Origin: Candidatus Cloacimonadales bacterium
GTDB lineage: Bacteria > Cloacimonadota > Cloacimonadia > Cloacimonadales > JAFGVF01
Reading direction: 5' to 3'
Assembly: GCA_963677495.2 (NCBI GenBank)
Contig: CAXXOU010000004.1
Coordinates: 864,001 to 928,000 of the forward strand
Length of the DNA stretch: 64,000 bases
Of the stretch, positions 101 to 47,292 are shown one piece after another (positions within the stretch are counted from its first letter, which is position 1; every line of letters begins with the position of its first letter). The translations under genes were made by a program, and so were the position numbers. Under the pieces are notes generated by a model that saw nothing but the letters and a program-made list of their open reading frames with translations, did not search any database and was not told where the DNA came from.

Positions 101-228
101 CCCATTCAATAAAGCTATGACAAAGATTACATAGTTATCCACAACTTGTGACTAACTTACTGCTTTGAGTAAGAGAGAAGTAAGAGTCCAGTAAGTGTGA
201 AGTAAGAGATAAGTAAGAATTGAATGGG
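101..228. repeat. Dispersed intergenic element (copy 1): 10-bp terminal inverted repeats, TTATCCACA box, 11-bp-spaced AGTAAG array
   Basis: CCCATTCAAT 101-110 / ATTGAATGGG 219-228; AGTAAG at 168,179,190,201,212; inverted CTTACT at 156; homologous to 47176-47292. Confidence 0.8.
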
Positions 229-330
229 GGTAATCGAAGGGACATAGCATGCTATAATCTATTGAGTAATTAAAATATACCGGATTTCTCATTTTGAATC
301 ATACATTTTTCATCTTGCATTTAATCCCGA

Positions 331-481
331 TTCTCCCACGAGTAATAAAGACATGAAGATAATATCCATCCCATATCCAACTAATAAGATTCCTATATGT
401 TCATATAGTTTTCATATAAGAGTCATATAGGGATCATATAGGAATTATGCAGTTGTTGCTCCAGTGCCTAACGTGGGAGAA
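331..481. repeat. 11-bp periodic TCATATA array bracketed by 10-bp inverted repeat
   Basis: TCATATA at 401,412,423,434; TTCTCCCACG 331-340 / CGTGGGAGAA 472-481. Confidence 0.7.
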
Positions 482-540
482 GGGGGATAAATCGAGCATT
501 AAACTATAAAATATAATAAGAAAAATGGTTAACGGATGCT

Positions 541-683
541 CCCCAGAACCACCAGATTCATCTGGTGGCTGAATGCACTAACACACACTATCTTAACCCC
601 ACTCTCCCGATTCTGCAGGAATCGGGAGGGTGGGGAGTTTGGGTGTAATCTCCTGCCCCTATTTGAAAAAAGGGGTTCTGGGG
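541..683. repeat. Nested GC-rich REP-like hairpin cluster
   Basis: CCCCAGAACC 541-550 / GGTTCTGGGG 674-683 enclosing CCACCAGA-ttca-TCTGGTGG (549-568) and a near-perfect hairpin 597-635. Confidence 0.6.
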
Positions 684-968
684 AAGCTAATTAATGATTA
701 TGTATTATCTTCTGGTGTTGTAACAAGATTATGATTGACATGATAAAAATAGATATTCAAATCAGTTATCGCTTGGAAAAGAGGTGTATAATCTCGAGCT
801 CTTGAACATCGTGCAACATGTTGTACTGTCTCAATCCATGAGTTGAATGGGATCGTGATTGAACCTATGGATGTTTCTCGCAATTAAATTTTTTATAGAA
901 TCCTTGTTATTATTCATTGACATGCATTATACTGAATATTTTTATTGAAAAAAATATTGGAGATAAAA

Positions 969-1991
969 ATGAATAGGAATACTTTAAGTCTTTATCCTAT
1001 CGATTTCCCATTTGAAACACTTGTATCTAGAATTGAAGCAAATCCTCCCAAACTTATATTGGATCCAGATTTTCAAAGAAAATACAAATGGGATAATGAT
1101 GGTTTCGAGAGATCAAGTAAGTTTATTGAATCTTGCTTAATGAGAATTCCATTACCTGCTTGTTATTTTGCAGAAAATGAAGAAAGCAATCATTTAGTTA
1201 TTGATGGGGTTCAGAGATTAACAACAATTCAAAGATTCTTTAATGATGAATTTGCATTAGAAGGTCTAACTTTCTATAATCATTTAAATGGCATGAAATT
1301 TTCAGAGCTTGGAGATTTAAAAAATGAGCTAGAGACAACTACAATTCGCTGTGTTGTCTTGAGAAAAGAGAATGACAAAGCCTTGATTAGAGAGATTTTC
1401 GCCAGATTGAATCAAGGAACAGTTAAATTATCAGATCAAGAAATTAGACATGCAATATACTCAGGTCCTTTTGATGAATTACTCACAGATATTGCATCAC
1501 ACACTTTTATACAAGCATTTAGAAATAATGATCAAAAAGAAGACAGGTCTGATGAGGAGCTTGTACTAAGATTCTTTGCTTTAGAATCAGATCTTGAATC
1601 ATATGATGGGAAACTATCAAAGTTGCTTGATGATTTTATGCAGGACCATCAAGACATAAGTAGGGAGGATGCACAAGAACTAGCAAATAAGTTCAAAACA
1701 ACCCTAAATAAATGTATGAGGACATTTGATGAACCCTTTACAAATGCAAATTTAGAAAAGAATAAGCGAAAAGGTGTTGTATACTATGATCTACTTATGT
1801 GGAGCTTTAGCAAGTTACCTGATGAGATAATTGACTCTAATAAAAATGAAATAATTACTGCATATTCTAACTTATGTGAAAATGGCGACTTTCAAAAAAA
1901 CATGCTAGGAGGATTACAAAAAAAATCTTCTATCATTAAAAGAAGAAAGTTATGGACTGCTGAGTTAAGGGGGGTTGGAATTGAAATCTAA
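969..1991 (+). CDS. DUF262 (GmrSD N-terminal/ParB-like) domain protein
   Basis: Motifs PDFQRKYKW, IES.L..IP.P, VIDGVQRLTT, IFARLN; ATG 969 follows GGAGA (ORF track starts at TTG 945). Confidence 0.85.
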   Translation: MNRNTLSLYPIDFPFETLVSRIEANPPKLILDPDFQRKYKWDNDGFERSSKFIESCLMRIPLPACYFAENEESNHLVIDGVQRLTTIQRFFNDEFALEGLTFYNHLNGMKFSELGDLKNELETTTIRCVVLRKENDKALIREIFARLNQGTVKLSDQEIRHAIYSGPFDELLTDIASHTFIQAFRNNDQKEDRSDEELVLRFFALESDLESYDGKLSKLLDDFMQDHQDISREDAQELANKFKTTLNKCMRTFDEPFTNANLEKNKRKGVVYYDLLMWSFSKLPDEIIDSNKNEIITAYSNLCENGDFQKNMLGGLQKKSSIIKRRKLWTAELRGVGIEI

Positions 1992-2601
1992 CTCACTAGT
2001 AAAACTTGAGATTAAAATTGATCATTTGGCCAGTAAGATAAGTGATTTTGAACATTTACTCCTTGAACCGAATCCTAACACTTTTATAATAGAAAATGCG
2101 AATTTTTTGACTAGATCGTTTTTGATCAGTCTTTGTGGATATTTGGAAGTATATCTTAAAGACATTATTGAGGAATATCTTGTAAAAGTTAATGATCTTG
2201 TTTCGAGTATTAAAGTTCCAATCAATTTGATTCGTTGGTCCATTGAGAATAAACCAAAGGCAAACTCAAAGATGAACTCATTACTTGATCCTAAAAAAAC
2301 TAAGTTTGAAGATTTACAGTTAAGAATAACTAAGAACGATTTAGACCAATTCATATCTGGAAATCCTTTCAGAACTAAAGATCTTCTCATTATGTTTGGA
2401 ATTGATTTAGAATCATATGATTTTTTTTCAAATATGAAAGTTCAGATTAACTCCTTTGTATTCACAAGAAACAATATTCTACACTATGATGATGATGCTT
2501 CCAGTTTGACAACTGGTGATATAATGGAAGCAAGTTCATTGTTTCTTAATTATGCCTTACAAATAGATGATCTGATAACAAATAAGATAAATCAAGTCTA
2601 G
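1975..2601 (+). CDS. HEPN-domain protein (MAE_28990/RiboL-PSP-like), putative RNase
   Basis: C-terminal Rx4H motif (RNNILH), N-terminal LCGYLEVYLK helix; overlaps DUF262 gene end. Confidence 0.7.
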   Translation: MELKSNSLVKLEIKIDHLASKISDFEHLLLEPNPNTFIIENANFLTRSFLISLCGYLEVYLKDIIEEYLVKVNDLVSSIKVPINLIRWSIENKPKANSKMNSLLDPKKTKFEDLQLRITKNDLDQFISGNPFRTKDLLIMFGIDLESYDFFSNMKVQINSFVFTRNNILHYDDDASSLTTGDIMEASSLFLNYALQIDDLITNKINQV

Positions 2602-2696
2602 CGAATGTGAAATTAAACCAAATCTGATTCAATTCTTTAGTTGACACAAAATACTGCTATATAAATTCACTGCAAACAGAAGAAGCGAGGCAACCA

Positions 2697-4589
2697 GTGA
2701 GTTTAGTAGCCATAAGTGGGCTTAATTTCAGTTTCGGTGGTAGGGAACTATTTAAGGATTTAAGTCTTTCAATAGAAAAAGATAGCAGAATCGGGCTCGT
2801 GGGAGTCAACGGTTGTGGAAAAACAACACTTTTTAGTCTGATAAAGGGGAGACTTACACCCGAGAGTGGTGACATCCTCAAAGCAGGGAAGTGTCAGATG
2901 GCATTCCTACGTCAGGAAAATGAACTAAATCAGACCCAATCCCTTTTAGAAGAGGTACTCACATCCCGTCCTAAGATGTTGGAGATAGAGAAGCAGTTGC
3001 ATGAACTGAATCTTCAACTTGAGAAAGAATCAAACGAAACGCTTCTCAATAAAATGACAAAGCTTCAACAGCAGTTTGAGCTGATGGGTGGATTCACTTT
3101 TGAAACGGAGATGAAGCTTTTACTCACAAGCTTAAACTTCCCGGAAAGTGAATGGTATCGCTCAGTATCAAGCTTTAGTGGGGGAGAGCAGTCCAGAATC
3201 CAACTTGCAAAGATACTGCTTGCACCTCATGATCTGCTCTTACTCGATGAACCGACAAACCATCTAGATACTTTCCAGATTGAGTTCTTGAAGAACTTCC
3301 TGAATAGAAATACAACACCATATATTATCATCTCGCATGACAGATACTTCCTAGATGAGACTGTGAAGAACATAGTAGAGATCAGAGGTAAGAAAGCTAA
3401 GAAATATAGAGGAAACTACTCAGCGTTTGTGCAACAATCAGAAGCTAATCATCTGCTTGAAGAGAAACTTTGGAAAGCACAACAGAAGCATATTGCTAAA
3501 GAGGAAGACTTTATACGCAGGAACTTAGCCGGTCAGAAAACTAAACAAGCTCAGGGACGTAGAAAGATTTTAGAGCGGACTGAGAGACTTGATAGACCGG
3601 ACTCATTAGAGACCTTTAACCTTGGCTTGAATAGCGAGTATCGCTCAAGTAACGATATATTCAGAATGACAGATATTAAGTTCGGTTATCCGGATAAAGA
3701 GCTTGCGTATGCTGAAGCTTTATACGCAGGATACAAAGATAGAATCGCGATTATAGGTGCAAACGGTTGTGGTAAATCAACACTTCTGAAAGCGCTTTTA
3801 GGGTATCTTGCTCCGTTATCAGGTACACTGTACGTTGGTAACAATCTTAAGATTGGATACTTCGGACAGATGCAGGAGGAGCTAAATACAAGTATAAAAG
3901 TGATGGATACAATCTGGGAGATGGTTCCGGATGCTCCACAAGGTTATGTATTAGGTTATCTTGCAAGATTCGGGTTCAGAGGAGATGATGTTGATAAGAA
4001 TGTCGGAACTTTGAGTGGTGGAGAAAAAGCAAGGCTTAAGCTGGCTGTACTTATACATCAAAAACCAAATCTATTGATACTTGACGAGCCGACAAACCAT
4101 CTTGATATCTATATGGTAGATAGTCTGGAAGAAGCCCTGAAAGCTTATGACGGTACTCTTGTTTTTGTATCGCATGATAGATATTTTATTGACAAGGTTT
4201 CCACTAAAAAGTGGTTTTTCTCCAAAGGTATCATTAAAGAGAGTAAAGATAGCTTCGCAAAGGTTATCGAGCGCATTCAACTTGAGAGTCAGGAAAAGCC
4301 TGTAACTCCGAAACAGCAAAAGCCAAAGAGTAATAAACGACGTGTAAACCCTATTCTTCTGGAAAAGAAGATGAAGGAGATTGACGATGTTACTGCTGAG
4401 ATGGATGCTTTAAACAGTGAGAAAGGTGAAATTGAAACTGAGTTCTCATTACCTGATACATATAGTAATGCTGAGCGAGTCAAAGAACTAAACAATCGTA
4501 TGACTGAGATAAGCAAAGCATTAGAAGAACGTGCTGAAAAACTTGAGATACTCGAAGATGAGTATCTTGAGATGAGTATAGATGATTAA
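2697..4589 (+). CDS. ABC-F family ATPase (ribosome-associated, Uup/YdiF-like)
   Basis: Two NBDs (GVNGCGKT, GANGCGKST; SGGE; LDEPTNHLD twice), no TM domain, C-terminal coiled coil. Confidence 0.9.
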   Translation: MSLVAISGLNFSFGGRELFKDLSLSIEKDSRIGLVGVNGCGKTTLFSLIKGRLTPESGDILKAGKCQMAFLRQENELNQTQSLLEEVLTSRPKMLEIEKQLHELNLQLEKESNETLLNKMTKLQQQFELMGGFTFETEMKLLLTSLNFPESEWYRSVSSFSGGEQSRIQLAKILLAPHDLLLLDEPTNHLDTFQIEFLKNFLNRNTTPYIIISHDRYFLDETVKNIVEIRGKKAKKYRGNYSAFVQQSEANHLLEEKLWKAQQKHIAKEEDFIRRNLAGQKTKQAQGRRKILERTERLDRPDSLETFNLGLNSEYRSSNDIFRMTDIKFGYPDKELAYAEALYAGYKDRIAIIGANGCGKSTLLKALLGYLAPLSGTLYVGNNLKIGYFGQMQEELNTSIKVMDTIWEMVPDAPQGYVLGYLARFGFRGDDVDKNVGTLSGGEKARLKLAVLIHQKPNLLILDEPTNHLDIYMVDSLEEALKAYDGTLVFVSHDRYFIDKVSTKKWFFSKGIIKESKDSFAKVIERIQLESQEKPVTPKQQKPKSNKRRVNPILLEKKMKEIDDVTAEMDALNSEKGEIETEFSLPDTYSNAERVKELNNRMTEISKALEERAEKLEILEDEYLEMSIDD

Positions 4590-4601
4590 TTAGGAGAATA
4601 G

Positions 4602-5861
4602 ATGCAAAAAGTAGATTTATTAGTAATTAATGCAAAGCAACTTCTGACATTAGCCGGTAAGGCTGCTCCCAGAGTAGGAAAAGAGATGTCAGAGCTTGGT
4701 CTAATCGAAGATGGAGCTATTGCTGTAAAAGATGGTCTCATTGTTGCAACAGGTACAACTGATGAGCTCAAAGCACAGTTTGAAGCTGATGACATTGTTG
4801 ATGCAACTGATAGAGTAGTGATGCCCGGATTCGTTGATCCACACTCACATCCGATATTCGTGCATACTCGTGAGAATGAGTTCGCAATGAGGATACAGGG
4901 CAAGAGCTATGTTGAGATCTCTCAAAGTGGTGGTGGAATCCGTTCTACTATGAACTCAACCAGAGATGCAGATGAAGACCTGTTGTTTGAGCTGGCAAAG
5001 AAGAGAATAAGTAAGCTTATCAGTGTGGGAACAACTACCTTAGAAGCTAAAAGCGGATATGGTCTTACTACTGAGTCTGAACTTAAGCAGTTAAGAGTCA
5101 TCAAAAGATTAAATGATGAACTACCAATAGATATTGTACCTACATTTATGGGTGCACATGAATTTCCAACTGAGTATAAAGAGAACCATGAAGCCTACTT
5201 GAAGATTCTTGAAGATGAGATGCTTCCTGCAGTTGCTGAACAGGGCATTGCGAAGTATTGCGATATCTTTACTGAACTGCATGTTTATAATATAGAGGAA
5301 TCGAGAAGAGTTTTAACTAAAGCTAAAGAACTTGGCTTAAAACTAAAGATGCATGCTGATGAGATAGAACCAATCGGTGGGGCAGAACTGGCAGCTGAAC
5401 TTGGTTGTGAAAGTGCAGACCACCTTGGGGCAGCTTCTGATGAAGGAATAGAAGCAATGGCCAAAGCAGGTGTGATTGCAACCCTTTTACCCGGTACTAT
5501 ATTTAGCCTCGGTATGAAAGGATATGCCAGAGCAAGAAAGATGATAGATTCAGGTGTGCCTGTTGCTCTCGCTACAGACTATAACCCGGGAAGTTGTAAT
5601 GCTGATTCTCAGCAGATAATTGCTACACTCGGATGTCTTCAAATGAAGATGTTACCGGAAGAAGTAATTGTAGCCACAACCATCAATGCAGCCTATGCAA
5701 TTGGCATGGGAGATAGGGTTGGATCACTGGAAAAAGGCAAGCAAGCTAACTTCTTGGTCATGGATATGCCTAATTTTGGCTTCCTTCCTTACCACTTCGG
5801 ATCTAACAATTGCGAAAAAATATATATCAATGGCCAACGCTTCACAGTATTGGAACGATAA
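4602..5861 (+). CDS. hutI: Imidazolonepropionase
   Basis: PGFVDPHSH, GGGI, EAKSGYGL, HADE, ATDYNPGS motifs. Confidence 0.95.
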   Translation: MQKVDLLVINAKQLLTLAGKAAPRVGKEMSELGLIEDGAIAVKDGLIVATGTTDELKAQFEADDIVDATDRVVMPGFVDPHSHPIFVHTRENEFAMRIQGKSYVEISQSGGGIRSTMNSTRDADEDLLFELAKKRISKLISVGTTTLEAKSGYGLTTESELKQLRVIKRLNDELPIDIVPTFMGAHEFPTEYKENHEAYLKILEDEMLPAVAEQGIAKYCDIFTELHVYNIEESRRVLTKAKELGLKLKMHADEIEPIGGAELAAELGCESADHLGAASDEGIEAMAKAGVIATLLPGTIFSLGMKGYARARKMIDSGVPVALATDYNPGSCNADSQQIIATLGCLQMKMLPEEVIVATTINAAYAIGMGDRVGSLEKGKQANFLVMDMPNFGFLPYHFGSNNCEKIYINGQRFTVLER

Positions 5862-5920
5862 TTGCGAAATTGATATTTCGAGATAAGTTAACCTAATTTT
5901 TTTTATAAATGGAGGAACTA

Positions 5921-8900
5921 ATGAGACGACTTCAAGTCATTTTAATCATGTTAGCTGTAGTTGCGACCTGTTTTGCTTCAGCTGATATGAGTGTAAGAAC
6001 AGCAGAAAACAGGGTGAGTGTAACTTATACCAGCTCACTTCAAACAGAAGAGAACAGATCTACTGTCGAAACATTCATACTTCCGGCTACTGAAGCTGAG
6101 ATTCAGATTAACAATATGGTAATTGAAAGAAGAGACGCAAGCGGAAACGTTCTTGAAACTCTTCGTAACGCTGATGAAGATCGCGTTAGAATTACTGACA
6201 GCTTTGTTATGCGTGAAATGTATGGGTTCGAAGTAACAATTGATGAACAAATTGATAACAATGACGGAAGCGTATCCATTATCTCTGAACTGGATTATGA
6301 TCTTGTTGCAAGAAACAATATCACGATTCCTACAGAGATCTCTTCAGCTTTCAGACAAGCTTATGAAGATATCGCTTTAAACTTTAACGATTCATATCTT
6401 AGAAACCTTCCTGATAAGAGACCCGGTATTCTTATGATTGGACGTCCAAGTATTGCTCCTTACATAGCAAGCTTTATCGAATGGAAGAGATCTTTAGGAT
6501 TCAATGTACATTTTGCTGACACTGATGAGTGTGGTGGAAATACACTTGATGATATTGATGCTTATGTAGAAAACTATTACAATGAACATCACCCTGAATA
6601 TCTTATTATTTTCGGTGATACAGTTGGTGATGACTACTATATTCCAACTAACTTCTTCCAGTCTCCTGATGGACTTGAAAATGATGCTGATGATAACTAC
6701 TATACAATGATTACAGGTGACGATAGTATGCCTGAAATGCTTGTAGGTAGAATGTCATTTAACGATGTAGGTCAGCTTCTTACAATGGTTAACAAGACCA
6801 TGATGTATGAAGGTACACCATTCTTAGGAGATCCTAGTTGGTTCTCAAAGGCTCTCATGGTTGCAGGTAACTACGCTGAAGGTGGACTTCAGCCAAGTAC
6901 TCCAACTCTTACATGTGATTTTTTTGCAGAACTCTACGAACAAGATGGTTTTGCTGTAGATAAAGTTTATTATCCACCAAACGAGTTGGCTGCAACAGTT
7001 ATCAGACAGCACATAAATAATGGTAGAAGTTGGATTATTTATCGTGGTTGGGGTGATGCTACAGGTTGGCACTATCCAAGATTCCATAAAGAAGACCTCG
7101 ATGCTTTACAGAATGGACCAAAAATGCCTGTTGTTCTTTCAATCGTATGTAATACAGGTGACTTTGCTAATGCCACTCATGTTGAGTGTTTTGGTGAGTA
7201 TTGGATGCATCTTGGAACTCCAAGTCAACCTAATGGTTGTGTAGCTTTTGTTGGGCCATCAGATCTTCACACAAGAACAGCTCTTAATAACTCATTCTCT
7301 ACTGGTATTGTTGATGCAATAGTACACAAAGGAGTAAGAAGTTTTGGTGCTGCTGTGCTTGGTGGCAAAATTGAAATATATAACAACTTCCCACTCGAAA
7401 GAGCTGATGGTGGATATGTTCCTTTCTATAACCATATTTATGCTATCTTATCAGATCCTTCAATGAATGTTTGGTACGGTGTACCACAAGCTATTGCTGA
7501 CAACTTACCTGATACAATTGATAGAGCTACATCATCACTTGTTATAGATTACCCTGGTTTAGATGGGGCAAGAGTTACAGGTACTAAAGATGGTTTAAAC
7601 TTTACATATACTGAAGTTGTTAATGGTAGAGCAATCCTTCCTGTTGATTCTATGACAGATGGAGACCTTACTGTAACAATCAGTAAAATAAACATGGTTC
7701 CTTTACAGAAGACAATCTCTGTAAGCGAATCTACAGATAACATAGCTGTAACAGCAAACGTATTAGCAAACGGTGAATACCTTATCGCCGGTGAACCAAT
7801 GGAGATTACTTATACACTTAAGAATCTCAGTGCTAACAGTTATGACAACGTTACAGCTACTTTAACAAGTAACAATGCTGAAGTTAATACAATCTCAGCT
7901 GCTGTAAACGTGGGTACTCTTGCTGCTAATGCAGAAGCAACTGCTACATTTACTGTTGAACTTAATGGTGCTATCCTTCCAAGTAATGTTATTGAGATGG
8001 ATTTAGCTATTTCACCTACAAGTACTACTGAAAAGTTCTCATACAGAATTGGTGGACATGCATTATTTGCAAATCCACAGACAGCTTCAGTGGCTATCGG
8101 TGGAGATTCAAACATCACTGTTGATGTTACTAACATCGGTGTTTATGGTGTTGATGGTGATATCGAAGTAAGAAGTCTTTGTGATGCTGCTACAGTCGCA
8201 CAACCTGACATTGATGATATCGAAGTTGCTGTTGGTGCTACAACTCAGGTTTCATTCACTGTTAGTGTAAACTCCGAATGTTTCCCTGGTCGTTCATTAC
8301 CATTTGCTTTCATCACAACTGATGAAAATGGCTATGAAACAACTTCACACTTCAGCGTAACTGCCGGAACAGTTGATAATACTGCTCCTACAGGACCTGA
8401 TGCTTACGGGTACTATGCTTATGACAGTAATGACACAAGCTGGGCACAGGCTCCAACTTATGAGTGGATAGAAATTGACCCTCGTGATGGTGGACAAGGT
8501 ACTGTTTATGAAGTAACTGATGACATGTCTGTAGATATGGACTTACCTTTCACATTCAGATATTATGGAATCGATTATAACAGTATCACAGCTTGCTCAA
8601 ACGGTTGGATTTCATTCGAACAGACATGGATGAGTAACTTTGATAACCTTTATATTCCTTCTCCATTAGGACCATATGCTATGGTTGCTCCATATTGGGA
8701 AGACCTTAAAGGTACTCAGGACGGCTCTGGTGGGTATAATGATATGAGACTAGTTACTTGGCATGATACTGCTAACAACAGATTCATCATCGAATGGAAT
8801 GATGCATATAACAGATTCACTGTTACATCTGCAAATCCATCACTCGAGAAGTTCCAGCTTATCCTTTATCCACAAGCTGATAATGATGGTGAAATGGTTG

Positions 8901-9397: not shown

Positions 9398-9419
9398 AGA
9401 AACTTCAACAATTTCAACT

Positions 9420-9450: not shown

Positions 9451-9502
9451 TTTATATCTTTAATAATTTATCGGGAACAATTAACTGTTTCTGAGTATAT
9501 AT

Positions 9503-9586
9503 ACCACGCATATACCATGGATAAACCACGGGTAAACGGCGGGAGCCGTGGTTAACCCGTGGTTTATCCGTCGTCAACCCGTTGTC
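9503..9586. repeat. 11-bp periodic ACCACG / CCGTGGT inverted array (copy 1)
   Basis: ACCACG-like at 9503,9514,9525,9536; CCGTGGT-like at 9546,9557,9568,9579; homologous to 37091-37165. Confidence 0.8.
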
Positions 9587-9834
9587 AAGAATCAAGCAAT
9601 CTAGTTTCAAAGAAAAGGGCTTTCTTAAACTCTTAATTAATCGAGTAAAAGTGTAACAAGAGAGCCAGATAAGAGTCCATAGTTTAAGGAAGATTTGGAC
9701 ATTTATGTTTAAAACCTCAAGTGAAACAATCAAAATATTGAAAAAAGGTTGACTTCACAAAAACGAGTTTTCAATATGGCAAGTTGCGCCTTTAAAAAGG
9801 CATAGATAATCATTTGAACTATTAGTGGGGACAG

Positions 9835-17932: not shown

Positions 17933-17991
17933 AATACTTAAAACTAATTTATTATTAAGCTCTAATCGATGCTTCATTAGTCTTTCATAAT

Positions 17992-18068
17992 TCACGGGAC
18001 ACACTCGGGACTTTTCCCGAGAAATTCCCTTGTAAGTCGCATAAAACTCCCAAATAATCCCCGCGAGT
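17992..18068. repeat. Degenerate 11-bp periodic GGGA/TCCC inverted array
   Basis: cacgggacaca ctcgggacttt tcccgagaaat tcccttgtaag tcgcataaaac tcccaaataat cccc. Confidence 0.55.
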
Positions 18069-18127
18069 TGTGATAGGTTAGTGAAAGTGTGGATTGCATC
18101 AGCTGCGAAGATACACCAGCCACTCGA

Positions 18128-28105: not shown

Positions 28106-28289
28106 AATACCTCCAAAAGTATTGCATTGCCTGATAGTTTATGGTGATAGAGAGATTAGGATTAATCTAGCTATCAGCATAAACATCTACATTATTGATA
28201 TGTAAATCTAGCGTGTCAAGGATTTAGTTTTTTACACCTTGGTCTTTTAAAGTATTCTCTTATTGTACTATTCAACAAAACGCAGTCAT

Positions 28290-28386
28290 CCCACTGTTTT
28301 CCCACTGTGCACGCACTGTGCACCCAGTGAAACAGTGGGTTGGTAGTGCCTTCACAGTGCGTACACAGTGCAAACGCAGTGCGTTG
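28290..28386. repeat. 11-bp periodic CACTG / CAGTG inverted array
   Basis: CACTGT at 28292,28303,28314; CAGTG-like at 28333,28344,28355,28366,28377. Confidence 0.8.
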
Positions 28387-28431
28387 ATGGATAGAGCAGT
28401 AAAAGAGAGTAAAAAGGGCAATAAATATAGC

Positions 28432-28616
28432 TAAGTCATTGCAAATCGCACTGTGTATGTCTATTTCGGACTTGCGTTGCAGCGATAGCGTGACGCGAGA
28501 ACGAAATCAGGGATATGCTACATCGGAGTGCATTTTAGGAAGTCCGTTTGCCTTATCAGGCTGACAAACTCCCTGAAATGCGGTAAGTCATTGCAAATCG
28601 CACTGCGTATATCTGT
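28432..28616. repeat. Direct repeat pair (22 bp identical) enclosing a stem-loop motif
   Basis: TAAGTCATTGCAAATCGCACTG at 28432 and 28584; enclosed 28528-28583 matches 18128-18190 in reverse complement. Confidence 0.7.
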
Positions 28617-36965: not shown

Positions 36966-37090
36966 GATACTCCTTTTAATCAACATTACAGTCGATGTAA
37001 CAAAATGAAACTGTCAAGGGATAAAGTGTTGTTAAATGAGTTAAAGAACATAAGCATTGCCTTATATGTCTGGCAGAAGTCGCATAAATA

Positions 37091-37165
37091 ACCACGGATG
37101 AACCACGGGTAAACCACGCCCAAACCACGGGAACCGCGGTTAACCCGTGGTTTACCCGTTGTCAA
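37091..37165. repeat. 11-bp periodic ACCACG / CCGTGGT inverted array (copy 2)
   Basis: ACCACG at 37091,37102,37113,37124; CCG(C/T)(G/T)GT at 37134,37145,37156. Confidence 0.8.
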
Positions 37166-37267
37166 CTATTAAACTTTACTCCGACTTTCATTGGTTCCAA
37201 CAATATTTATAGACAGTAATTCTTATCTCTTTATCTTGTGAGTATATAAAGATTAATTGGAGGAAAC

Positions 37268-38362: not shown

Positions 38363-38373
38363 TAATTATCATT

Positions 38374-38403
38374 TAAAGAGCGAAGTCTAACTTCGCTCTT
38401 TAT
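38374..38403 (+). terminator. Terminator after Ldh_2 gene
   Basis: TAAAGAGCGAAGT-cta-ACTTCGCTCTTTA. Confidence 0.75.
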
Positions 38404-38417
38404 CGTTTAGAGGAACT

Positions 38418-38792
38418 ATGGATATTATATACAAGCAAGAATCGTACAATATTCAAGGTGGAATTTTTGAAGTATATAAAGAAATGGGTGCTGGATTTTT
38501 AGAAAGCGTTTATCAAGAGTGTTTAGAAAGAGAGTTTTTTCGAAGAAAAATTCCATTTGAAGCTCATCCATTACTGCAAATCTCATATAAGGGTGAAATG
38601 ATAAATCAGAATTTCATACCTGATTTTGTGTGCTACGATAAGATCATTGTCGAGATAAAAGCTGTATGTAGTTTAAATGAAGTTCATAAAGCTCAGTTAA
38701 TTAACTATCTTAAGTGTACAGGATTCAAACTTGGGATGTTGGTAAATTTCGGGGAGTATCCTAAAGCTGTCATCAAAAGAATTGTTATTTAA
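38418..38792 (+). CDS. GxxExxY protein (PD-(D/E)xK nuclease-like)
   Basis: GAGFLESVY, PDFV..DKIIVEIKA, HKAQLINYLK, GMLVNFG. Confidence 0.92.
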   Translation: MDIIYKQESYNIQGGIFEVYKEMGAGFLESVYQECLEREFFRRKIPFEAHPLLQISYKGEMINQNFIPDFVCYDKIIVEIKAVCSLNEVHKAQLINYLKCTGFKLGMLVNFGEYPKAVIKRIVI

Positions 38793-38802
38793 AATCAATA
38801 GA

Positions 38803-38916
38803 TCACAAAAAACACGAAAGACACGAAAAAAAGAAATGGAACTTGTTGAATTATGTTAAGTGTATGGCACATCTACATCATTAAAATGTTTTCGTGCTTT
38901 TCGTGTTTTTTGTGGT
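38803..38916. repeat. Inverted pair of 9-bp CACGAAA tandem repeats
   Basis: CACAAAAAACACGAAAGACACGAAAA (38804-38829) / TTTTCGTGCTTTTCGTGTTTTTTGTG (38889-38914). Confidence 0.75.
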
Positions 38917-38940
38917 TAATATTTCTGATTAGAAATTAAA

Positions 38941-38968
38941 AAAGTCTGCCGTTTTAACAGCAGACTTT
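38941..38968 (-). terminator. Terminator after ferritin
   Basis: AAAGTCTGC...GCAGACTTT preceded by A-run. Confidence 0.7.
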
Positions 38969-38985
38969 CATTATGTAAGTATCAA

Positions 38986-39495
38986 TTACGCACCTGCTGG
39001 TGGAGTAAATGACCTTGTTGCCAGTTCTTTATCCATCATGTAAAGTGTATGTGGATTAGCTGAAACCATCTTGATAGTTGTGAGAAGTTTATCTACGTTA
39101 GCTTCCTCTTCTACTTGCTCATCGATGTACCATTGTAAGAAACTCTTTGCAGCATGATCTTTTTCATCAATCGCTACGTTCATAAGATTGTTTATGCAAT
39201 CAGTAATAAATCTTTCATGCTTTAAAGTCATCTCAAACACTTGAGTAACATTTTCGAAATCAGTCTCTGGTTTATCTATTGCCTGTAAAACAACAGTTCC
39301 ACCGCGTTCAACAACATAATCAAAAAGCTTCATTGCATGAAAGCTTTCCTCTTCATATTGCACATGCATCCAATTGGCAAAACCATCAAGGTTTTGACTT
39401 TTGAACCATGCCGACATTGAAAGGTACAGATAAGCTGAGTAGAATTCTCTATTTATCTGATCATTTATCTCTTTTTCTAACTTTACTGTTATCAT
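38986..39495 (-). CDS. ftnA: Non-heme ferritin
   Basis: QINREFYSAYLYLSM, EEE..HAMK, HE, FLQWYIDEQVEEE; ATG 39495 after AAGGAGG. Confidence 0.93.
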   Translation of the reverse strand: MITVKLEKEINDQINREFYSAYLYLSMSAWFKSQNLDGFANWMHVQYEEESFHAMKLFDYVVERGGTVVLQAIDKPETDFENVTQVFEMTLKHERFITDCINNLMNVAIDEKDHAAKSFLQWYIDEQVEEEANVDKLLTTIKMVSANPHTLYMMDKELATRSFTPPAGA

Positions 39496-39496
39496 T

Positions 39497-40678: not shown

Positions 40679-40696
40679 AATTCCTCCATTTATATA

Positions 40697-41497
40697 TTAT
40701 TTTTGACATATTTGACAATAAAAGGTCGATCTTCCGGCTTGTTTTATCCGAACAATTGGATGACCTTTCGGGCAAACTTCTTTTTGATAGACTCTTAAGA
40801 AATTTTGGAAAGAACCAGATTTGTCGTCAACATTCCTAAAATCTGATATCGTTGTACCATTGTGTAGAAGCGCTTCCGTAATAACTTCTTTCGTATATTC
40901 AACAACACGGTCTATTTGCGATCTAGTCAATTTATTTCCTTCAAGAGTAGGGGAGACTTTAGCTCGATATAGTAACTCACATACATAGATATTACCTAAA
41001 CCTGCAACAACATCCTGTCGAAGTAATACATTCTTGATTGGTGCTTTTAACCTTTTTAGCTGTAACTTTAGATACTTTGCGTTAAACTCATCAGATAAAG
41101 GTTCCGGCCCCAACTTCAAAATCGATGGATCTGTTTCATCTTTTGGATAGATCTTTATAGATCCGAAAGTTCTAATATCTTCAAACTGAAGTAATGTCCC
41201 ATCATTAAATCTTATGATAGCTCTTGTATGAGGGGTTAAACTCTCATTATGTACAAATACTAGTTTTCCGGTCATTCTTAAATGGATAACCATACTAAAA
41301 CTGTTTGAGAGTGAGATAATTATATACTTACCTCTACGTGATATATTGTCAATTTTTACAGGTTCTCCAATAAAGTCCTGATTCACAAAATAATCGACTG
41401 TATTTGCTCTTAATTCAACAATTTCTGATATCTGTTTATCAATTACATAGTCTTTTAGACCATTAACAATTGTATTTACTTCCGGTAGTTCCGGCAT
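40697..41497 (-). CDS. mutM: Formamidopyrimidine-DNA glycosylase
   Basis: N-terminal MPELPEV, RRGKY, HLRMTG, AGLGNIY, GRSTFYC..CQ. Confidence 0.96.
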   Translation of the reverse strand: MPELPEVNTIVNGLKDYVIDKQISEIVELRANTVDYFVNQDFIGEPVKIDNISRRGKYIIISLSNSFSMVIHLRMTGKLVFVHNESLTPHTRAIIRFNDGTLLQFEDIRTFGSIKIYPKDETDPSILKLGPEPLSDEFNAKYLKLQLKRLKAPIKNVLLRQDVVAGLGNIYVCELLYRAKVSPTLEGNKLTRSQIDRVVEYTKEVITEALLHNGTTISDFRNVDDKSGSFQNFLRVYQKEVCPKGHPIVRIKQAGRSTFYCQICQK

Positions 41498-41584
41498 CAA
41501 TTCTCCTGTTTTTTAGTTAAGATAAACAAACATTGATACTATGCCAATAGTAATATAGCATTTTTACATATATTTAAGTATTAA

Positions 41585-42604
41585 TCATCTCATGCAAATA
41601 TTGTACATCAAAGTTGTTAATAATATGTTTGACTTTGTGCTAATAGATTTAAGCTTTTTGTCGCAATCATACATTAGTGATAAAGCAGTTTTTATTTCAG
41701 TAGCACTATATCGATTCGCAGCATTAATCCTATCATTTCGAAACAATTTGTACACTTCATGCATATGATTTTCCATGATTTCATTATCTGATAGGTTCTT
41801 AGCACGTAGTGCATGAACTTTCCACAATGTTAGAAAGTATCGGGAGATCATTGTAATAATCATCACTGCTGAGTCATTAAGGTTTTCAAAGCTCTCAAGA
41901 ATCGAAACAGTTTGCCTTATATCTCTTCTACCTAAACTGTTTTGTAGATCGAAGACATTACTCTCATTTGAAATGGCAATACATTGCTTTACATCATTCA
42001 GAGTAATCATATTCTTCTTTCCGACATAAAGTAGTAGCTTTTCTAACTCATTATTAGCTGTGAAGTAATCCAGTTTAATGTGTGACGCTAGATACTGAAT
42101 TGCGGAAGAGTCAATACGCACCTGTTTATCTCTTAACTCATCTCTTATCCATCGAGCCAGACCGTCTGCATTATATGGTGTTTTACATTGTATAATAGTT
42201 GCATTAGCTTGAAACGCTTTGTATAATCTTGACCTTGCATCAATCTTTCGAGCAGTAACTATAAGAATAGTACTAAATGATGGTTCTTTTAGATAAGATA
42301 TAATAGATTCATGTTGATTAGTTTTTACCAGATCTATTTCCCGCACAACCACGACTCTGTTTTCAGCAATAAACGGCATTGTATCTGCTTGCTCTACAAT
42401 TTCAGAACCGGTGCACTCATCACCATGCAGAGTTACATAATCAAATTCCAAAGCTTGTTTAGTGAGGAATCTGTTCATAATCATTTTCATTATCCGCTCT
42501 TTAAGAAACTCCTCATCACCGGAAACTAGATATACTGATTGTGGTTCCGATTTTGGAAACTCACGAGTAAACTGATAGTGTGGTACTGCTTTTTTGCTAG
42601 CCAT
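41585..42604 (-). CDS. holA: DNA polymerase III delta subunit
   Basis: VYLVSGDEEFL, TMPF...RVVVV, NELEKLLLY, D.KLKS. Confidence 0.88.
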   Translation of the reverse strand: MASKKAVPHYQFTREFPKSEPQSVYLVSGDEEFLKERIMKMIMNRFLTKQALEFDYVTLHGDECTGSEIVEQADTMPFIAENRVVVVREIDLVKTNQHESIISYLKEPSFSTILIVTARKIDARSRLYKAFQANATIIQCKTPYNADGLARWIRDELRDKQVRIDSSAIQYLASHIKLDYFTANNELEKLLLYVGKKNMITLNDVKQCIAISNESNVFDLQNSLGRRDIRQTVSILESFENLNDSAVMIITMISRYFLTLWKVHALRAKNLSDNEIMENHMHEVYKLFRNDRINAANRYSATEIKTALSLMYDCDKKLKSISTKSNILLTTLMYNICMR

Positions 42605-43416
42605 TAGAAACCTGAAAGTACGAGTATTACGCTAACTAATGAAATTAACCAGCAATAATATGCAAAATATTTTAACTTACGCTTTCTTATTAGATTTAGA
42701 AGCATTGAGATAACAAGGTACCCACTAACAAAAGCACCAAGTCCACCAATTGAATAGCTCATAAGCATTGATTGGTCCAGTTGTAAAAATGCATCAAGGT
42801 TAAGAACAGCAGCACCTAAGATGGCTGGTATACTTAATAAGAATGAGAATCTTGCAGCTTCTGATCTCTTAACACCAATAAATAATGAGGTTGCAATAGT
42901 AGAACCAGATCTGGATATACCGGGTAAAATTGCCATTGATTGACTCAAACCTATAACGATTGCACGCCAAAATCCCATATCTGCTGTGTGGATATGGTCA
43001 AACCTAATTGTATCAGAGAGAAATATAATCAAACCGGTAACACTTAGAAGTCCTGCTACAATAACAGGTTTACTAAACATCTCTTCAAAGAAATCCTTAA
43101 AGAGAAAGCCAATTACACCAGTCACAACTGTACTTATAATCAAATAGAAAACGATCTTTCGATTGTTGACCTGTCTCTCAGGAAACTTTTCATTCTTAAT
43201 TGGAAAGAACGCCTGTGCCAACTCGAAGATATCTTTATAGAAGTATAGAATTACTGCAAGTAATGAACCAAGATGTAGAAATACTTCGAAAGAAGTATCA
43301 ATTGAGTTGATACCTAAGAAATGTTGTCCGAGAACCAGATGTCCTGAACTTGATATAGGGAGGAACTCAGTCAAGCCTTGTATTATCCCTAATAACAGTG
43401 ATTGCAATATATTCAT
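42604..43416 (-). CDS. uppP: Undecaprenyl-diphosphate phosphatase
   Basis: GIIQGLTEFLPISSSGHL, PGISRSGST, FSFLLSIPA. Confidence 0.96.
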   Translation of the reverse strand: MNILQSLLLGIIQGLTEFLPISSSGHLVLGQHFLGINSIDTSFEVFLHLGSLLAVILYFYKDIFELAQAFFPIKNEKFPERQVNNRKIVFYLIISTVVTGVIGFLFKDFFEEMFSKPVIVAGLLSVTGLIIFLSDTIRFDHIHTADMGFWRAIVIGLSQSMAILPGISRSGSTIATSLFIGVKRSEAARFSFLLSIPAILGAAVLNLDAFLQLDQSMLMSYSIGGLGAFVSGYLVISMLLNLIRKRKLKYFAYYCWLISLVSVILVLSGF

Positions 43417-43427
43417 TAAAAGCCCTT

Positions 43428-44702
43428 TTATAGTTTTGGTGACTGCATCGATTTTAAATCAGAAAGCCTATACAATGGATACCCATTCTTCGATGCGGTT
43501 ATTATGAATTTATTTAGATTAATCAAATCTTGTTTAGTTTTACAGTGATAATAGTATATTATTGATTTGGAACTATTGGAATTCAATGCTGTTATTATAT
43601 TAAAGCGTGCACCACTGGAACCAATTTTGCCATCTAGTGAATTCTCTTTCTCGAAGTACATCACATCCTTTTCAGCAGAAACAATTTCACTGACAGATTT
43701 AGAGGTTGTCTTTGCATCGATAAAATACATACCCTCTTTTCTAATGCAATCCAGCAGAGTTTCAATTATCTCGCGTTTTGCTGTAGCATGACTACCCATA
43801 TAGTTTGTTGCTCCAACACAGTCGGGGAGAAGTTGCATATAATCTTTAAACTTAGATTTAATCTCTCGTTTAGAGTCACTTACGAGTATAGAGTTTTTCC
43901 CGGCTTTGTATGGGTAACGACCAAGTGGTTCCATGGGCATTCTAATCAGACAAGGGAATCCGGCTTTACTGATTGCTTCATAATGCTGATGAGCAAACTT
44001 CTTTTCCGGTAAAAATGCTACCTGGAGATTCTTATTCATTGGAAGTAAACTCTTAACCATCTCAGCTTTTACATCCTCACCAAAAGTTGCCACTACTGCA
44101 ATTTTTGTTTTACCAGATGCCTGTTTCTCCAAAAATAGTACTAACGAGTGTTGCTTCTCATATCCTGACTTCGAGAATATAAGCTTCTGAGCCTGATACT
44201 TAACTCTGCGTTTGTAGAAGTAAGTCTCTACTCCGTTTACCATCTTGAAACCCTCTTTCTGCATTCTTCCCTTATAGAATATATTACAGAAGTAGAGATC
44301 CTCATTTTGTGCCGGTATCGGTATAAAATATTTTACTTCATTATCGGTTTTCTTAAACCAGATCTTCTCATTATCAACTGATATAGCTTTAGATAGCTTC
44401 TTAATTAAAGCAAGGACTTTCTCATCTTCACTAAGCTCTACTTTCGGTTTATCAAGCTCCGGTTTAGTTGGTTCAGTTTTCTGCTTTTCAACTCTTTTCT
44501 CCTTCTGTTGAGGGGCTGGAGTTGTTATATTTGAATCCTCTTTCTTAGGAGATGATTTAATTATGAAATTAATCAGATAGAACAATCCAACGATTACTGC
44601 TATAAGAAGTATAATCCTAATAATTGAAGCTAGTAATCCACCTTGTTTTTTCTTCTTAATACCTGATTTCTTTTTCTTTGTGCTCTTCTTTTTTTGCGGC
44701 AT
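43428..44702 (-). CDS. Membrane-anchored divergent polysaccharide deacetylase (YibQ-like) domain protein
   Basis: Basic N-terminus + TM; PMEP, GATNYMGS..T, YFIDAKT motifs (ORF track start 44717). Confidence 0.7.
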   Translation of the reverse strand: MPQKKKSTKKKKSGIKKKKQGGLLASIIRIILLIAVIVGLFYLINFIIKSSPKKEDSNITTPAPQQKEKRVEKQKTEPTKPELDKPKVELSEDEKVLALIKKLSKAISVDNEKIWFKKTDNEVKYFIPIPAQNEDLYFCNIFYKGRMQKEGFKMVNGVETYFYKRRVKYQAQKLIFSKSGYEKQHSLVLFLEKQASGKTKIAVVATFGEDVKAEMVKSLLPMNKNLQVAFLPEKKFAHQHYEAISKAGFPCLIRMPMEPLGRYPYKAGKNSILVSDSKREIKSKFKDYMQLLPDCVGATNYMGSHATAKREIIETLLDCIRKEGMYFIDAKTTSKSVSEIVSAEKDVMYFEKENSLDGKIGSSGARFNIITALNSNSSKSIIYYYHCKTKQDLINLNKFIITASKNGYPLYRLSDLKSMQSPKL

Positions 44703-44830
44703 TTTCCACCCGTTCATTTAAGTAAGTAACGAATATCTCATGAATGTTGGAAGTCAAGAATAAATCAGACTAATCTTGCTAGCTCCCCTTACATTTGATA
44801 ATAATATTATTGTATGGCACACCTCAACTG

Positions 44831-44994
44831 CTATTCTCCTTCATCTCCCGGCAGTAATAGATGCTTTTAGTTTGGTTGTAACTTACTAATAAATTGGTCA
44901 CTTCTTGGTAATTAGGCCAAGGATTGACCAAGTGTTTGCCAAGGGTTGACCAAGTGTTTCGCAGGAATTACTGCCGGGAGATGAAGGAGAATAG
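44831..44994. repeat. 28-bp perfect inverted repeat enclosing an 11-bp periodic TTGGT / CCAAG array
   Basis: CTATTCTCCTTCATCTCCCGGCAGTAAT 44831-44858 and its exact reverse complement 44967-44994; CCAAG at 44917,44928,44939,44950. Confidence 0.85.
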
Positions 44995-45035
44995 TAGAGG
45001 AGTTGTTGCATTACAAATAGTAGTATTGTAAGATT

Positions 45036-46987
45036 ATCAAATTAGCTCTGAAGGAGAGAATTTAAAATATATCTGAATGAGCAAATGCTTTGAAGCTCTG
45101 AAAGAGCGACTGTTTAATAGCCCCATGCCTTGGCATGGGGTCACTTATCCTATCACGATTCTTAGTCCTGTAGGGGCGTAAGACAATAACTTAATGTCTG
45201 TGATTTGGTGTTTAAGATTCCTACGCCCCTTCAGGGCTGAAATGTTTTCTGGGATTGTAACCACACGCCGAAGCGTGTGGCTAATGAACCTACGCTACTT
45301 CGTAGCTAAAACATTTGCTTTAATACCTACATAATGATACATTGTAACAATCAATTGATTCCTGCAAACAAACTTTTGTGCTAATCAAATTAGCTCTGAA
45401 GGAGAAAATTAAATTATATCTGAATGAGCAAACGCTTTGAAGCTCTGAAAGAGCGACCGTTTAATAGCCCCATGCCTTAGCATGGGGTCACTTATCCTAT
45501 CACGATTCTTAGCCCTGTAGGGGCGTAAGACAATAACTTAATGTCTGTGATTTGGTGTTTAAGATTCCTACGCCCCTTCAGGGCTGAAATGTTTTATGGG
45601 ATTGTAACCACATGCCGAAGCGTGTGGCTAATGAACCTACGCTACTTCGTAGCTAAATAAGATTTGGTTTAATACCAACATAATGTTACATGTAACAATC
45701 AATGGATTCCTGTAAACAAACCTGTTTTCTAAACAAATTAGCTCTGAAAAAGCGAACGTAAGATATATCTGAAAGAGCAAACACTTTAAAGCTCTGAAAG
45801 AGCGATTGTTTAATAGCCCCATGCCTTGGCATGGGGTTAAGTTTAAAAACAACATGTAGCCCTATATGGGCGAAAGATACACCAAACGATCTTATGTCGC
45901 GTTTAGATATTCCTACGCCCCTTCAGGGCTGAAATGTTTTCTGGGATTGTAACCACACGCCGAAGCGTGTGGCTAATGAACCTACGCTACTTCGTAGCTA
46001 AAACATTTGCTTTATTACCTACATATTGATACATTGTAACAATTAATTGATTCTGGTAAACAAACCTGTGTGCTAATCAAATTAGCTCTGAAAGAGCGAC
46101 CGTTTAATAGCCCCATGCCTTGGCATGGGGTCACTGTCTTACCACGATTTGTAGCCCTGGAAGGGCGTAACTTTAAGGTTGCAAAATACTTAAAATTTGT
46201 TATCATATTAAAAAGTCTGTAGGAGGATTAAATATGTCAACATTCACACAACTTATCTATCACATAGTTTTCTCAACAAAAAACAGAATGCGTTCATTGG
46301 AACTACAACATAAAGAAAGATTTCTTTCCTATATTTGTGGTGTAATTAAAAACGATAAATCCCATGTCTATCAAATCAATATGGTAGAAGATCATATCCA
46401 TATTTTGTGCTCTATTCACTGTCAAACCAATGTCTCTGAGTTTGTCAGACATATTAAGAATGCGACCAATACTTTCAACAAAAGAGAGAAGTTGTTTCCG
46501 ATGTTTGAGGGTTGGCAAAAAGGGTATGGAGCATTTACTGTGAACTGGAAAGAGAAACACCGTTTAGTTGAATATATCAAGAATCAGGAAGACCACCACA
46601 AGCGATATGACTTTATAACTGAGTATAAGCGAATGTTAAAGGATTTTGGTGTATGTTATGAGGAGAAGTATCTTTAATCCTACGCCCCTATAGGGCTAAA
46701 ATGCATTCTGGGATTGTAACCACACGCCGAAGCGTGTGGCTATTGAACATGCGCTACTTCGTAGCTAAAGTTTAGCTCTGAAAGAGCGATTGTTTATTAG
46801 CCCCATGCCTTGGCATGGGGTTAAGTTTCAAAACAGCATGTAGCCCTATATGGGCGAAAGATACACCAAAACAACCTTGTAGCTCGTTTGAATATTATTC
46901 CTGCGCCCCTTCAGGGCTGAATCTTTTTTTGGGATCGTTACCACACGCCAAAGCGTGTGGCTATTGAACCTACGCTACTACGTAGCT
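45036..46987. mobile_element. Five-unit tandem array of REP/REPIN-like hairpin cassettes containing an IS200-like transposase
   Basis: Left arms at 45094,45441,45790,46084,46774; right arms ending 45307,45654,45999,46766,46987; period about 345 bp. Confidence 0.85.
46234..46677 (+). CDS. tnpA: IS200/IS605-family HUH (Y1) transposase, RAYT-like
   Basis: YHIVFSTKNR, DHIHIL (HuH), WQKGYGAFTV, YIKNQEDHH (catalytic Tyr); AGGAGG RBS. Confidence 0.92.
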   Translation: MSTFTQLIYHIVFSTKNRMRSLELQHKERFLSYICGVIKNDKSHVYQINMVEDHIHILCSIHCQTNVSEFVRHIKNATNTFNKREKLFPMFEGWQKGYGAFTVNWKEKHRLVEYIKNQEDHHKRYDFITEYKRMLKDFGVCYEEKYL

Positions 46988-47095
46988 TAAAAAAAGCAAA
47001 TTCCAACACTGTTATATTATCTCTCGATTAAGAAAGGTAAGTTGTAGGCTTTATTGAAATAAGCTACAACCTTTCTCCTTGTTTCATCTTTCTTT

Positions 47096-47158
47096 TTACA
47101 TTCCTCATCTTGCATCTTGCATTTTACATTCCTCATCTTGCATCTTGCATTTTACATT
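47096..47158. repeat. 28-bp tandem duplication built of degenerate heptamers
   Basis: (TTACATTCCTCATCTTGCATCTTGCATT)x2 + TTACATT. Confidence 0.8.
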
Positions 47159-47175
47159 TGCCTTCCCCACATACG

Positions 47176-47292
47176 CCCATTCAATTAAAATACGACAAAT
47201 TTATAATAGTTATCCACAACTTGTGACTAACTTGATGCTTTGATCAAGAGAGTATCAAGAGAGTATCAGGTGAGTATCAAGAATTGAATGGG
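47176..47292. repeat. Dispersed intergenic element (copy 2) with 11-bp-spaced ATCAAG array
   Basis: CCCATTCAAT / ATTGAATGGG ends; TTATCCACA 47210-47218; ATCA(A/G)G at 47243,47254,47265,47276. Confidence 0.8.

Follow-up and report, generated by a model that had tools for sequence, protein, structure and literature searches.

The stretch of DNA analysed here, referred to as the window, comprises 64,000 nucleotides from a Candidatus Cloacimonadales bacterium (contig CAXXOU010000004.1, positions 864,001 to 928,000; G000:C4:864001-928000), whose genome, G000, measures 3.41 Mb with 37% GC. Eight intergenic loci in it carry arrays in which a short word, or core, recurs every 11 bp. The initial annotation had listed these eight arrays, and a check of the sequence finds all of them where it placed them, in exact 11-bp phase. 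The arrays belong to dispersed repeat families, copies of which stand upstream of genes for a family of ~150-amino-acid (aa) proteins. Arrays and genes together form a real, probably undescribed protein-plus-repeat system with a predicted role in DNA binding.

The first element of the window is a copy of family F8 in its AGTAAG variant (101-231, + strand), bounded by an outer inverted repeat (101-110/219-228). It contains a DnaA-box-like hairpin (133-157, with TTATCCACA at 135-143) and five AGTAAG cores at 168, 179, 190, 201 and 212, with an inverted core at 156. The last element (47194-47294, + strand) consists of a DnaA-box-like hairpin followed by cores at 47243, 47254 and 47276, with an inverted core at 47231, and carries the word ATCAAG, a variant that is also found upstream of the paralogous gene at G000:C4:777579-778031. 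The arrays at 168-212 and 47243-47281 are two word variants of this single family, which has 12 copies. Beside the first F8 copy lies F9 (333-479; outer inverted repeat 333-340/472-479; 7 copies), with CATATA cores at 402, 413, 424 and 435 and one inverted core at 394; F8 and F9 occur as a neighbour pair four times in the genome. No strand is assigned to F9 or to the remaining five elements. Family F2 (ACCACGG/CCGTGGT; 40 copies) is present twice, at 9500-9594, where direct cores (CCACG at 9504 and 9526) are followed by inverted ones (CGTGG at 9547 and 9558), and in the dxs-ldh gap at 37087-37166, with CCACG at 37092, 37103, 37114 and 37125 and an inverted core at 37146. The F7 copy at 17984-18078 (CGGGA/TCCCG; 24 copies) also runs from direct to inverted cores (GGGA at 17996 and 18007; TCCC at 18015, 18026 and 18048), while the ~210-bp copy of F1, the largest family with 68 hits, occupies 28256-28461 (CACTG at 28292, 28303 and 28314; CAGTG at 28333, 28355, 28366 and 28377). 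The F3-type copy at 44831-44994 (39 copies) has perfect 28-bp outer arms (44831-44858/44967-44994), CCAAG cores at 44917, 44928, 44939 and 44950, and an inverted core at 44904. Inverted halves, which the annotation had described for the loci in general, are well developed at 9500, 17992 and 28292; they are not universal, as the loci with inverted cores at 156, 394, 37146, 44904 and 47231 hold a single exact one each, and families F4 and F5 are mostly one-directional.

Loci at which three phased 5-mers recur at a given lag were counted genome-wide, and the lag-11 signal is far above chance. It marks 237 loci, of which 209 are intergenic, whereas the lags 8, 10, 13, 16 and 17 yield 3-11 loci each, with 0-7 in intergenic DNA. 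Among 14 lag-11 loci within open reading frames (ORFs) of at least 100 aa, nine are elements beneath short unannotated frames and five look like chance. A separate signal at lag 7, seen at 42 intergenic loci, comes from other repeats; the window contains two of 7-bp period, CATCTTG at 47085-47161 and ATAAGCT at 49717-49762, and such repeats, judged by eye, adjoin four-helix-bundle genes and class-B paralogs (see below). Slippage, which the annotation had already doubted, and simple sequence repeats are ruled out as the origin of the arrays by the sharp lag of 11 and by spacers that stay in register between copies. This register means that the loci are copies of one another. One ordinary family of miniature inverted-repeat transposable elements (MITEs) is likewise insufficient, as had been suspected: the loci are copies of many dispersed families, and copying is therefore involved. 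By contrast, clustering and family profiles ruled out the idea that the cores are locus-specific, since they are family-specific and every locus in the window is a copy of a family with 7-68 copies.

About 12-15 dispersed families are present in the genome, with copies of 100-200 bp and 3-68 copies per family. The 11 families modelled by clustering and family profiles account for 334 hits and 41 kb, or 1.2% of the genome (F1, 68; F10, 45; F2, 40; F4, 39; F3, 39; F5, 29; F6, 25; F7, 24; F8, 12; F9, 7; F12, 6). F11 has ~8 copies by clustering, and several more families have 2-3. Median pairwise identity between copies is 70-88% in seven families. In most families the outer arms are pyrimidine-rich and purine-rich; they form imperfect inverted repeats in F3, F4, F6, F7, F8, F9, F10 and F12 and weak ones in F1, F2 and F5. 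A pair of DnaA-box-like sites, called with the DnaA-box consensus, lies beside the array in F4, F6, F8 and F12, and 137 of the 322 TTATNCACA DnaA-box-like sites in the genome fall inside elements. Divergent gaps hold slightly more than their share of the elements (115 of 304, vs 155 of 562 long gaps), and elements cluster together (43 neighbour pairs among 308). No special tie emerged between the arrays and the accessory genes noted beside them by the annotation; elements are present in roughly one half to two thirds of the long gaps between genes. No target duplication was seen in the 11 families, where direct repeats spanning the ends are no longer than in cross-copy controls, although the ends are fuzzy and the scoring covered repeats of 5 bp or more. 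Empty sites were likewise not seen in four contig sets of one sample, whose joints trace to families that adjoin each other at other loci. The idea of elements as hot spots of rearrangement was considered and set aside: between G000 and G001, gaps of at least 300 bp are broken in 70 of 73 cases with an element and in 56 of 64 without, an effect inseparable from gap length.

The inverted repeats invite an explanation in which the elements function in folded form, as RNA or single-stranded DNA, for instance as terminators, stabilisers or slip hairpins, with 11 as the A-form helix repeat. Such action appears very improbable. Outer inverted repeats are present in most families, the F3 copy of the window has its perfect arms, and in F7 the arms of one copy pair with each other better than with those of other copies (15 vs 4). 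Elsewhere, however, a copy's own arm scores barely above another copy's arm, with cross-copy scores close or, in F1, F5 and F10, higher, and F4 and F5 have words in one direction. Orientation relative to transcription is unbiased except in F1 (22 vs 8), and Rfam gave no match at gathering score in the window. The register-shifting hairpins of the initial annotation thus find little support. Another of its suggestions, phased binding sites for a DNA-binding protein, is supported, and a candidate family of predicted binders can now be named.

This family emerged from clustering of the G000 proteome as 22 paralogs of ~150 aa, for which Pfam gave no family in the four paralogs searched. By C-terminal sequence they fall into class A (15 members, basic) and class B (seven members). 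An element lies within 1 kb upstream of 14 of the 15 class-A genes, and the fifteenth has F4 at 1.24 kb; for class B the count is 0 of 7. Elements are present in 49-64% of gaps 400-1200 bp long, and against this background the class-A excess has a binomial p of 0.012 (at 0.64). The array upstream of a class-A gene consists of 4-8 short words at 11-bp steps, ~70-900 bp from the gene, often direct and then inverted. Paralogs are mostly paired with different families: F1, F2, F3 (two subtypes), F4, F6 (twice), F7, F8, F9 (with F8 behind it), a distant F10, F11 (twice), F12 and one 3-copy family are linked to class A. By eye, a further small family stands upstream of a broken paralog at C4:469560, and a paralog ~18 kb past the end of the window (G000:C4:946147-946602, - strand) has an upstream F3 array. 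Rare families, with ~40 of 315 copies, take 7 of the 15 gene-linked slots (p=0.0013, on hand-counted family sizes). The upstream regions of paralogs gather other repeats too. In G000, class-A and class-B paralogs also stand back to back, 5-9 kb apart (L173, L176, L183, L189 and L190), enclosing cassettes with a DNA methylase, a C5 methylase and HATPase, or an ABC-3C CTD6 gene. Class B, acidic and array-less, could be a partner or antagonist of class A.

The protein family, assigned to Cloacimonadota by its source records, is found in 28 of the 41 genomes of the order, at 1-25 copies (366 representatives at 50% identity). In a quick, midpoint-rooted tree of the 88 homolog loci examined, nearly all array-linked genes fall into a single 49-row clade (Shimodaira-Hasegawa-like approximate likelihood ratio support 92), with separate expansions in the genus g1 and in the genomes G013 and G014. 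A lag-11 array lies upstream in 31 of the 49 clade rows and downstream in 0 of 48; outside the clade, 4 of 39 rows have one upstream. The arrays upstream of L106 (G013) and L069 (G014) represent private dispersed families with 40 and 39 matches, at most 40 being scored, and four other genomes gave 0-1 match each. F1 is present in 4 of the 41 genomes, all of genus g1. Gene and array also move as a cassette, since a unit of ~820 bp comprising F6, leader and gene (-363 to the stop codon) has been duplicated at 97% identity into an unrelated context, while arrays without the gene have been copied to 3-68 intergenic sites per family.

Orthologous genes keep their family between genomes of ~75% identity (F1 at L048/L098, F12 at L054/L093, F3b at L050/L094 and F4 at L042/L064), although other repeats have inserted between array and gene and the upstream neighbours have changed. 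Dispersed copies behave differently, and a congener does not share their positions. In the comparison with G001 (0.96 Mb), none of four conserved gaps holding an element in G000 also holds one in G001, and a shared family is seen in just 4 of the 87 broken gaps that have an element on either side. The orthologous xdh gene in G001 has F12 upstream instead of the F2 copy at 9500-9594, and the dxs-ldh gap there has no element. At 38418-38914 the window holds a GxxExxY (PDDEXK_3) gene, followed by 9-bp CACGAAAAA repeats and their inverse; the position after the orthologous ldh in G001 is taken instead by a paralog of the 150-aa family (L092), so that the gap at this position swaps small repeat-associated genes.

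Word and protein have diverged together. Among 21 metagenomic loci related to L069, four distant ones were set aside and 17 close ones compared; these carry three words at one upstream position, matching three versions of residues 20-49, and count as three lineages rather than as 17 independent events. In the two most similar types, residues 20-49 are 49% identical, against 100, 84, 71 and 80% in the other segments. Relatives of L054 were not found by peptide patterns in genome contigs, nor relatives of L069 in viral contigs. Longer homologs (181-240 aa; L117-L126 in G027, G021, and L350-L355) share the N-terminal motif and differ at the C-terminus; G021 and G027 have 19-25 matches each, mostly without 11-bp arrays and with one lag-10 array. 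No fused longer form with the full profile was found, which is weak evidence.

These comparisons bear on the simplest alternative, that the elements are ordinary mobile junk in long gaps and that each paralog inherits whichever element happened to be present. The high background of occupied gaps, the other repeats gathered upstream of paralogs and the clustering of elements would all be expected from such hitchhiking, yet it appears quite improbable. It does not predict the strict upstream bias, nor independent expansions with new words in three lineages and the same layout in another phylum. Between species, moreover, retention is confined to the gene-linked copy, residues 20-49 co-vary with the word, and junk would not hold an 11-bp period while the words change.

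The AlphaFold model of the protein (predicted local distance difference score 95.5; predicted template modelling score 0.79) has three short N-terminal strands (14-16, 19-23 and 30-34) followed by five helices. No solved-structure relative was found by sequence, and Foldseek against the PDB and viral sets gave no match at E<=0.001. VIA gave a best Z of 3.0 for the N-terminal 64 aa, with an AP2 domain at Z 2.3. Ribbon-helix-helix (RHH) chains make up ~12 of the top 50 structural matches, at Z 2.7-4.0 and over helices only (TraM: Z 4.0, root-mean-square deviation 2.4, 49 residues aligned); residues 42-59 form a helix in the model, where RHH proteins have their ribbon. The best-kept residues are G14, Y72, R33, K2, L109, L136 and D68, the conserved polar ones among 142 sequences being Tyr72 (99%), Arg33 (94%), Lys2 (92%) and Asp68 (87%). 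No conserved His pair occurs among these sequences. The median isoelectric point is 9.1 in 36 array-type and 6.3 in 21 array-less proteins, groups that were partly chosen by array.

The family weakly resembles DUF6266 of Bacteroidota. A structure search of the ESM Atlas returned a Bacteroidota cluster that is 54% DUF6266 (template modelling score, TM, 0.52 over 111 residues). Members do not reach the cut-off of the DUF6266 Pfam model (PF19781), which has no match in G000, and no literature on DUF6266 was found. Upstream of Bacteroidota DUF6266 genes, arrays occur at lag 11 in 15 of 24 loci, at lag 10 in 6 of 24 and at lag 12 in 0 of 24, with 0 of 24 downstream, counts that stand without a random Bacteroidota upstream control. 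Some of these arrays have inverted halves and a few have dispersed copies; in two cases checked, only two further loci carry the exact word pair. Lag-10 arrays at some DUF6266 genes (L384, L387, L388, L393 and L395) and lag 9 at two others suggest that lineages may differ in the period to which their arrays are tuned. More than 111 stretches in many phyla carry the F5 word at 11-bp steps, several of them within individual Paludibacteraceae and Bacteroides genomes; three of five genomes tested with such stretches have no DUF6266 match, so other partner proteins may exist.

If the protein binds its array, it might also mobilise it. The elements would then be the non-autonomous offspring of a REPtron-like selfish or domesticated element, and the protein a new tyrosine nuclease or recombinase, a proposal drawn by analogy that seems rather unlikely. 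According to PMC6006769, repetitive extragenic palindromic (REP) sequences and REP-associated tyrosine transposases (RAYTs) follow the pattern of one gene per repeat type with genome-wide copies. Tyr72, Arg33, Lys2 and Asp68, as the best-kept polar residues, would suit a catalytic role, the duplicated F6 unit ends at the stop codon, and array density tracks the presence of the array-linked clade. In samples of 20-160 kb per genome, which make the values rough, lag-11 density per Mb is 69.5 in G000, 31 in G013, 21 in G014 and 20 in G001, genomes with the expanded clade, while 120-140 kb from each of G004, G006, G031 and G027 held no lag-11 array. Mobilisation, however, is opposed by the absence of any HUH or integrase family or fold match, by Tyr72 being kept equally in the array-less class, by DUF6266 sharing the N-terminal motif only, and by elements that show no target-site duplication in the scored range of 5 bp or more, have fuzzy ends and lie on one side of the gene only.

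The window contains a Y1 tnpA gene (46234-46677; 147 aa, one of seven close paralogs) behind 3.1 copies of a 347-bp unit that carries a GC-rich palindrome, the whole at 45036-46677. This locus is REPtron-like and distinct from the 11-bp families; tnpA was discarded as their driver, since its array is the separate 347-bp one and nothing seen connects it to them, a point not tested further. A Mu-like transposase with a long low-complexity linker (L191:14737-17160; G000:C4:715737-718163) was examined for a linker built from 11-bp families, and no family model matched. ARAGORN also reports an odd, possibly artefactual 96-nt tRNA-Cys with anticodon ACA at G000:C4:243769-243864, in addition to the usual tRNA-Cys(GCA) and a tRNA-Sec.

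Phage replication origins offer another context, in which the proteins would be sentinels that jam phage origins (the arrays being autoregulatory) or the arrays decoys for phage initiators. Replication initiators or DnaD-like proteins make up 11 of the 30 scanned viral ORFs (of 49 found) that span F2- or F3-word arrays; this word style inside phage initiator genes indicates that such arrays are protein-binding tracks elsewhere. The DnaA-box-like pairs of four families, the share of TTATNCACA sites within elements and the methylase and ABC-3C-type genes between back-to-back paralogs would also fit origin mimicry, which nevertheless appears improbable. The viral matches are of words only, with the full element at 0 of 85 viral loci and no control word in the scan; L069 has no relative in viral contigs, and no initiator gene with an array of this kind was found in G000.

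Binding of the array by its linked protein, with or without mobilisation, is probable. Taken by itself, the narrower reading, in which every family of repeats provides a cognate docking track for a single member of the ~150-aa family and the protein binds without copying, is preferred tentatively, at a little under an even chance. The N-terminal three-stranded β-hairpin and linker (residues ~20-49) would read the 5-7-bp word, and because the words lie one helical turn apart, many subunits could align on the same DNA face at 11-bp steps, as ParR does on parC. The track upstream of the protein's own gene would serve autoregulation. Dispersed tracks would recruit the same protein into tens of nucleoprotein patches per paralog, titrating it, and these patches may bend or bridge the chromosome or tune nearby promoters, with copies spread by recombination or another enzyme.

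Several observations weigh against this cognate-binder reading. Array-less at the threshold used are 18 of the 49 clade rows; G027 has 25 homologs and no lag-11 array in its 120 kb of samples, and G024, without a homolog, gave two AT-rich lag-11 hits in 140 kb. Gene and array can stay linked by descent without any function, and related sequences are not independent of one another. In G000, no paralog is linked to F5 (29 copies), and F10 stands at a distance of 0.9 kb from its gene. A permutation test on automatically built clusters, in which F2 and F8 were merged and F1 was missed, is marginal (nine distinct families of 12, null mean 6.65, p=0.044). The protein has no convincing match to a known DNA-binding fold (best Z 4.1 for the whole protein), and the kinship with DUF6266 is weak (TM 0.52; hhalign probability 23% over 60 columns). 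DNA binding by the paralogs is itself a prediction, and a pure binder leaves the spread of copies unexplained.

A broader proposal covers both phyla. Cloacimonadota and Bacteroidota may possess a two-part system made of a small protein of new fold, with a re-addressable reading head of ~30 residues, and an 11-bp track, with a route for seeding 3-68 copies of each track along the chromosome, possibly the protein itself through Tyr72 and Arg33; this is conceivable, if doubtful. A dozen orthogonal protein-DNA address systems would then operate in one cell, as selfish replicators, as chromosome architecture, or as phage-origin decoys and sentinels. The analysis links a class of intergenic repeats to a protein family that lacks a known fold, neither of known function, as a testable pair with a predicted segment for specificity and a dozen protein-word pairs supplied by nature. 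Should binding be confirmed, a new sequence-specific DNA-binding family with a natural recognition code and useful orthogonal operators would follow, and it would join RAYT/REP as the second instance of a gene maintaining its own population of repeats. DUF6266 would gain a first functional handle, and ~41 kb of the genome and two fifths of its DnaA-box-like sites would be explained. No description of the system was found in the literature, most subscription papers and supplements being outside the coverage; the pairing of paralogs with families, the co-variation of residues 20-49 and the link between two phyla were tested in this analysis.

The closest parallel in organisation is the REPtron, with one tnpA-REP gene per REP type according to PMC6006769. 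As in RAYT/REP systems (PMC6006769, PMC3337134 and PMC3733652), there is one gene per repeat type, with the cognate repeat beside it, tens of gene-less intergenic copies and lineage-specific positions, here without visible target duplication. The protein, however, is not an HUH Y1 enzyme: Y1_Tnp is not among the 25 weak families listed, out of 35, for the 142 members, and the conserved His pair is missing. The repeats are phased word arrays of 100-200 bp rather than tagged hairpins of 20-40 bp, their consensus has no GTAG/GTGG foot by eye, they lie upstream only (0 of 48 downstream), and up to 15 paralogs share one genome. The elements also have the terminal inverted repeats of MITEs, in imperfect form.

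In architecture, the system resembles plasmid centromeres, namely parC with ParR in type II partition systems. PMC9426499 describes 11-bp docking repeats upstream of the binder's operon for R1 ParR/parC, and Clostridium perfringens ParR families that bind cognate sites only. Helically spaced direct and inverted repeats upstream of a gene for a small basic protein are common to both, as is the parallel divergence of protein and site families. In contrast to ParMRC, a scan of 90 of the 177 neighbouring ORFs, long flanking ORFs included, found no ParM or ParA ATPase, the model has a helix in place of the RHH ribbon, and the sites are chromosomal, with 3-68 copies. Iteron origins are bound by initiators such as lambda O and DnaD-like proteins, and P1/F-type iterons are accompanied by DnaA boxes. 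With these the system shares 11-bp phased words, DnaA-box-like pairs in four families and an adjacent gene whose product probably binds the word. It differs in that phage arrays lie within the initiator gene, whereas these are intergenic and number hundreds on one chromosome, and in that no initiator family is detected by sequence or listed by fold. With DUF6266 it shares the N-terminal G-x-x-G...V...R..P β motif and upstream 10/11-bp arrays, but the C-terminal halves differ and the Pfam model is not reached. The system thus combines a REPtron-like organisation with the architecture of a centromere or iteron array, yet by their defining features it is a member of neither REP/RAYT nor ParMRC.

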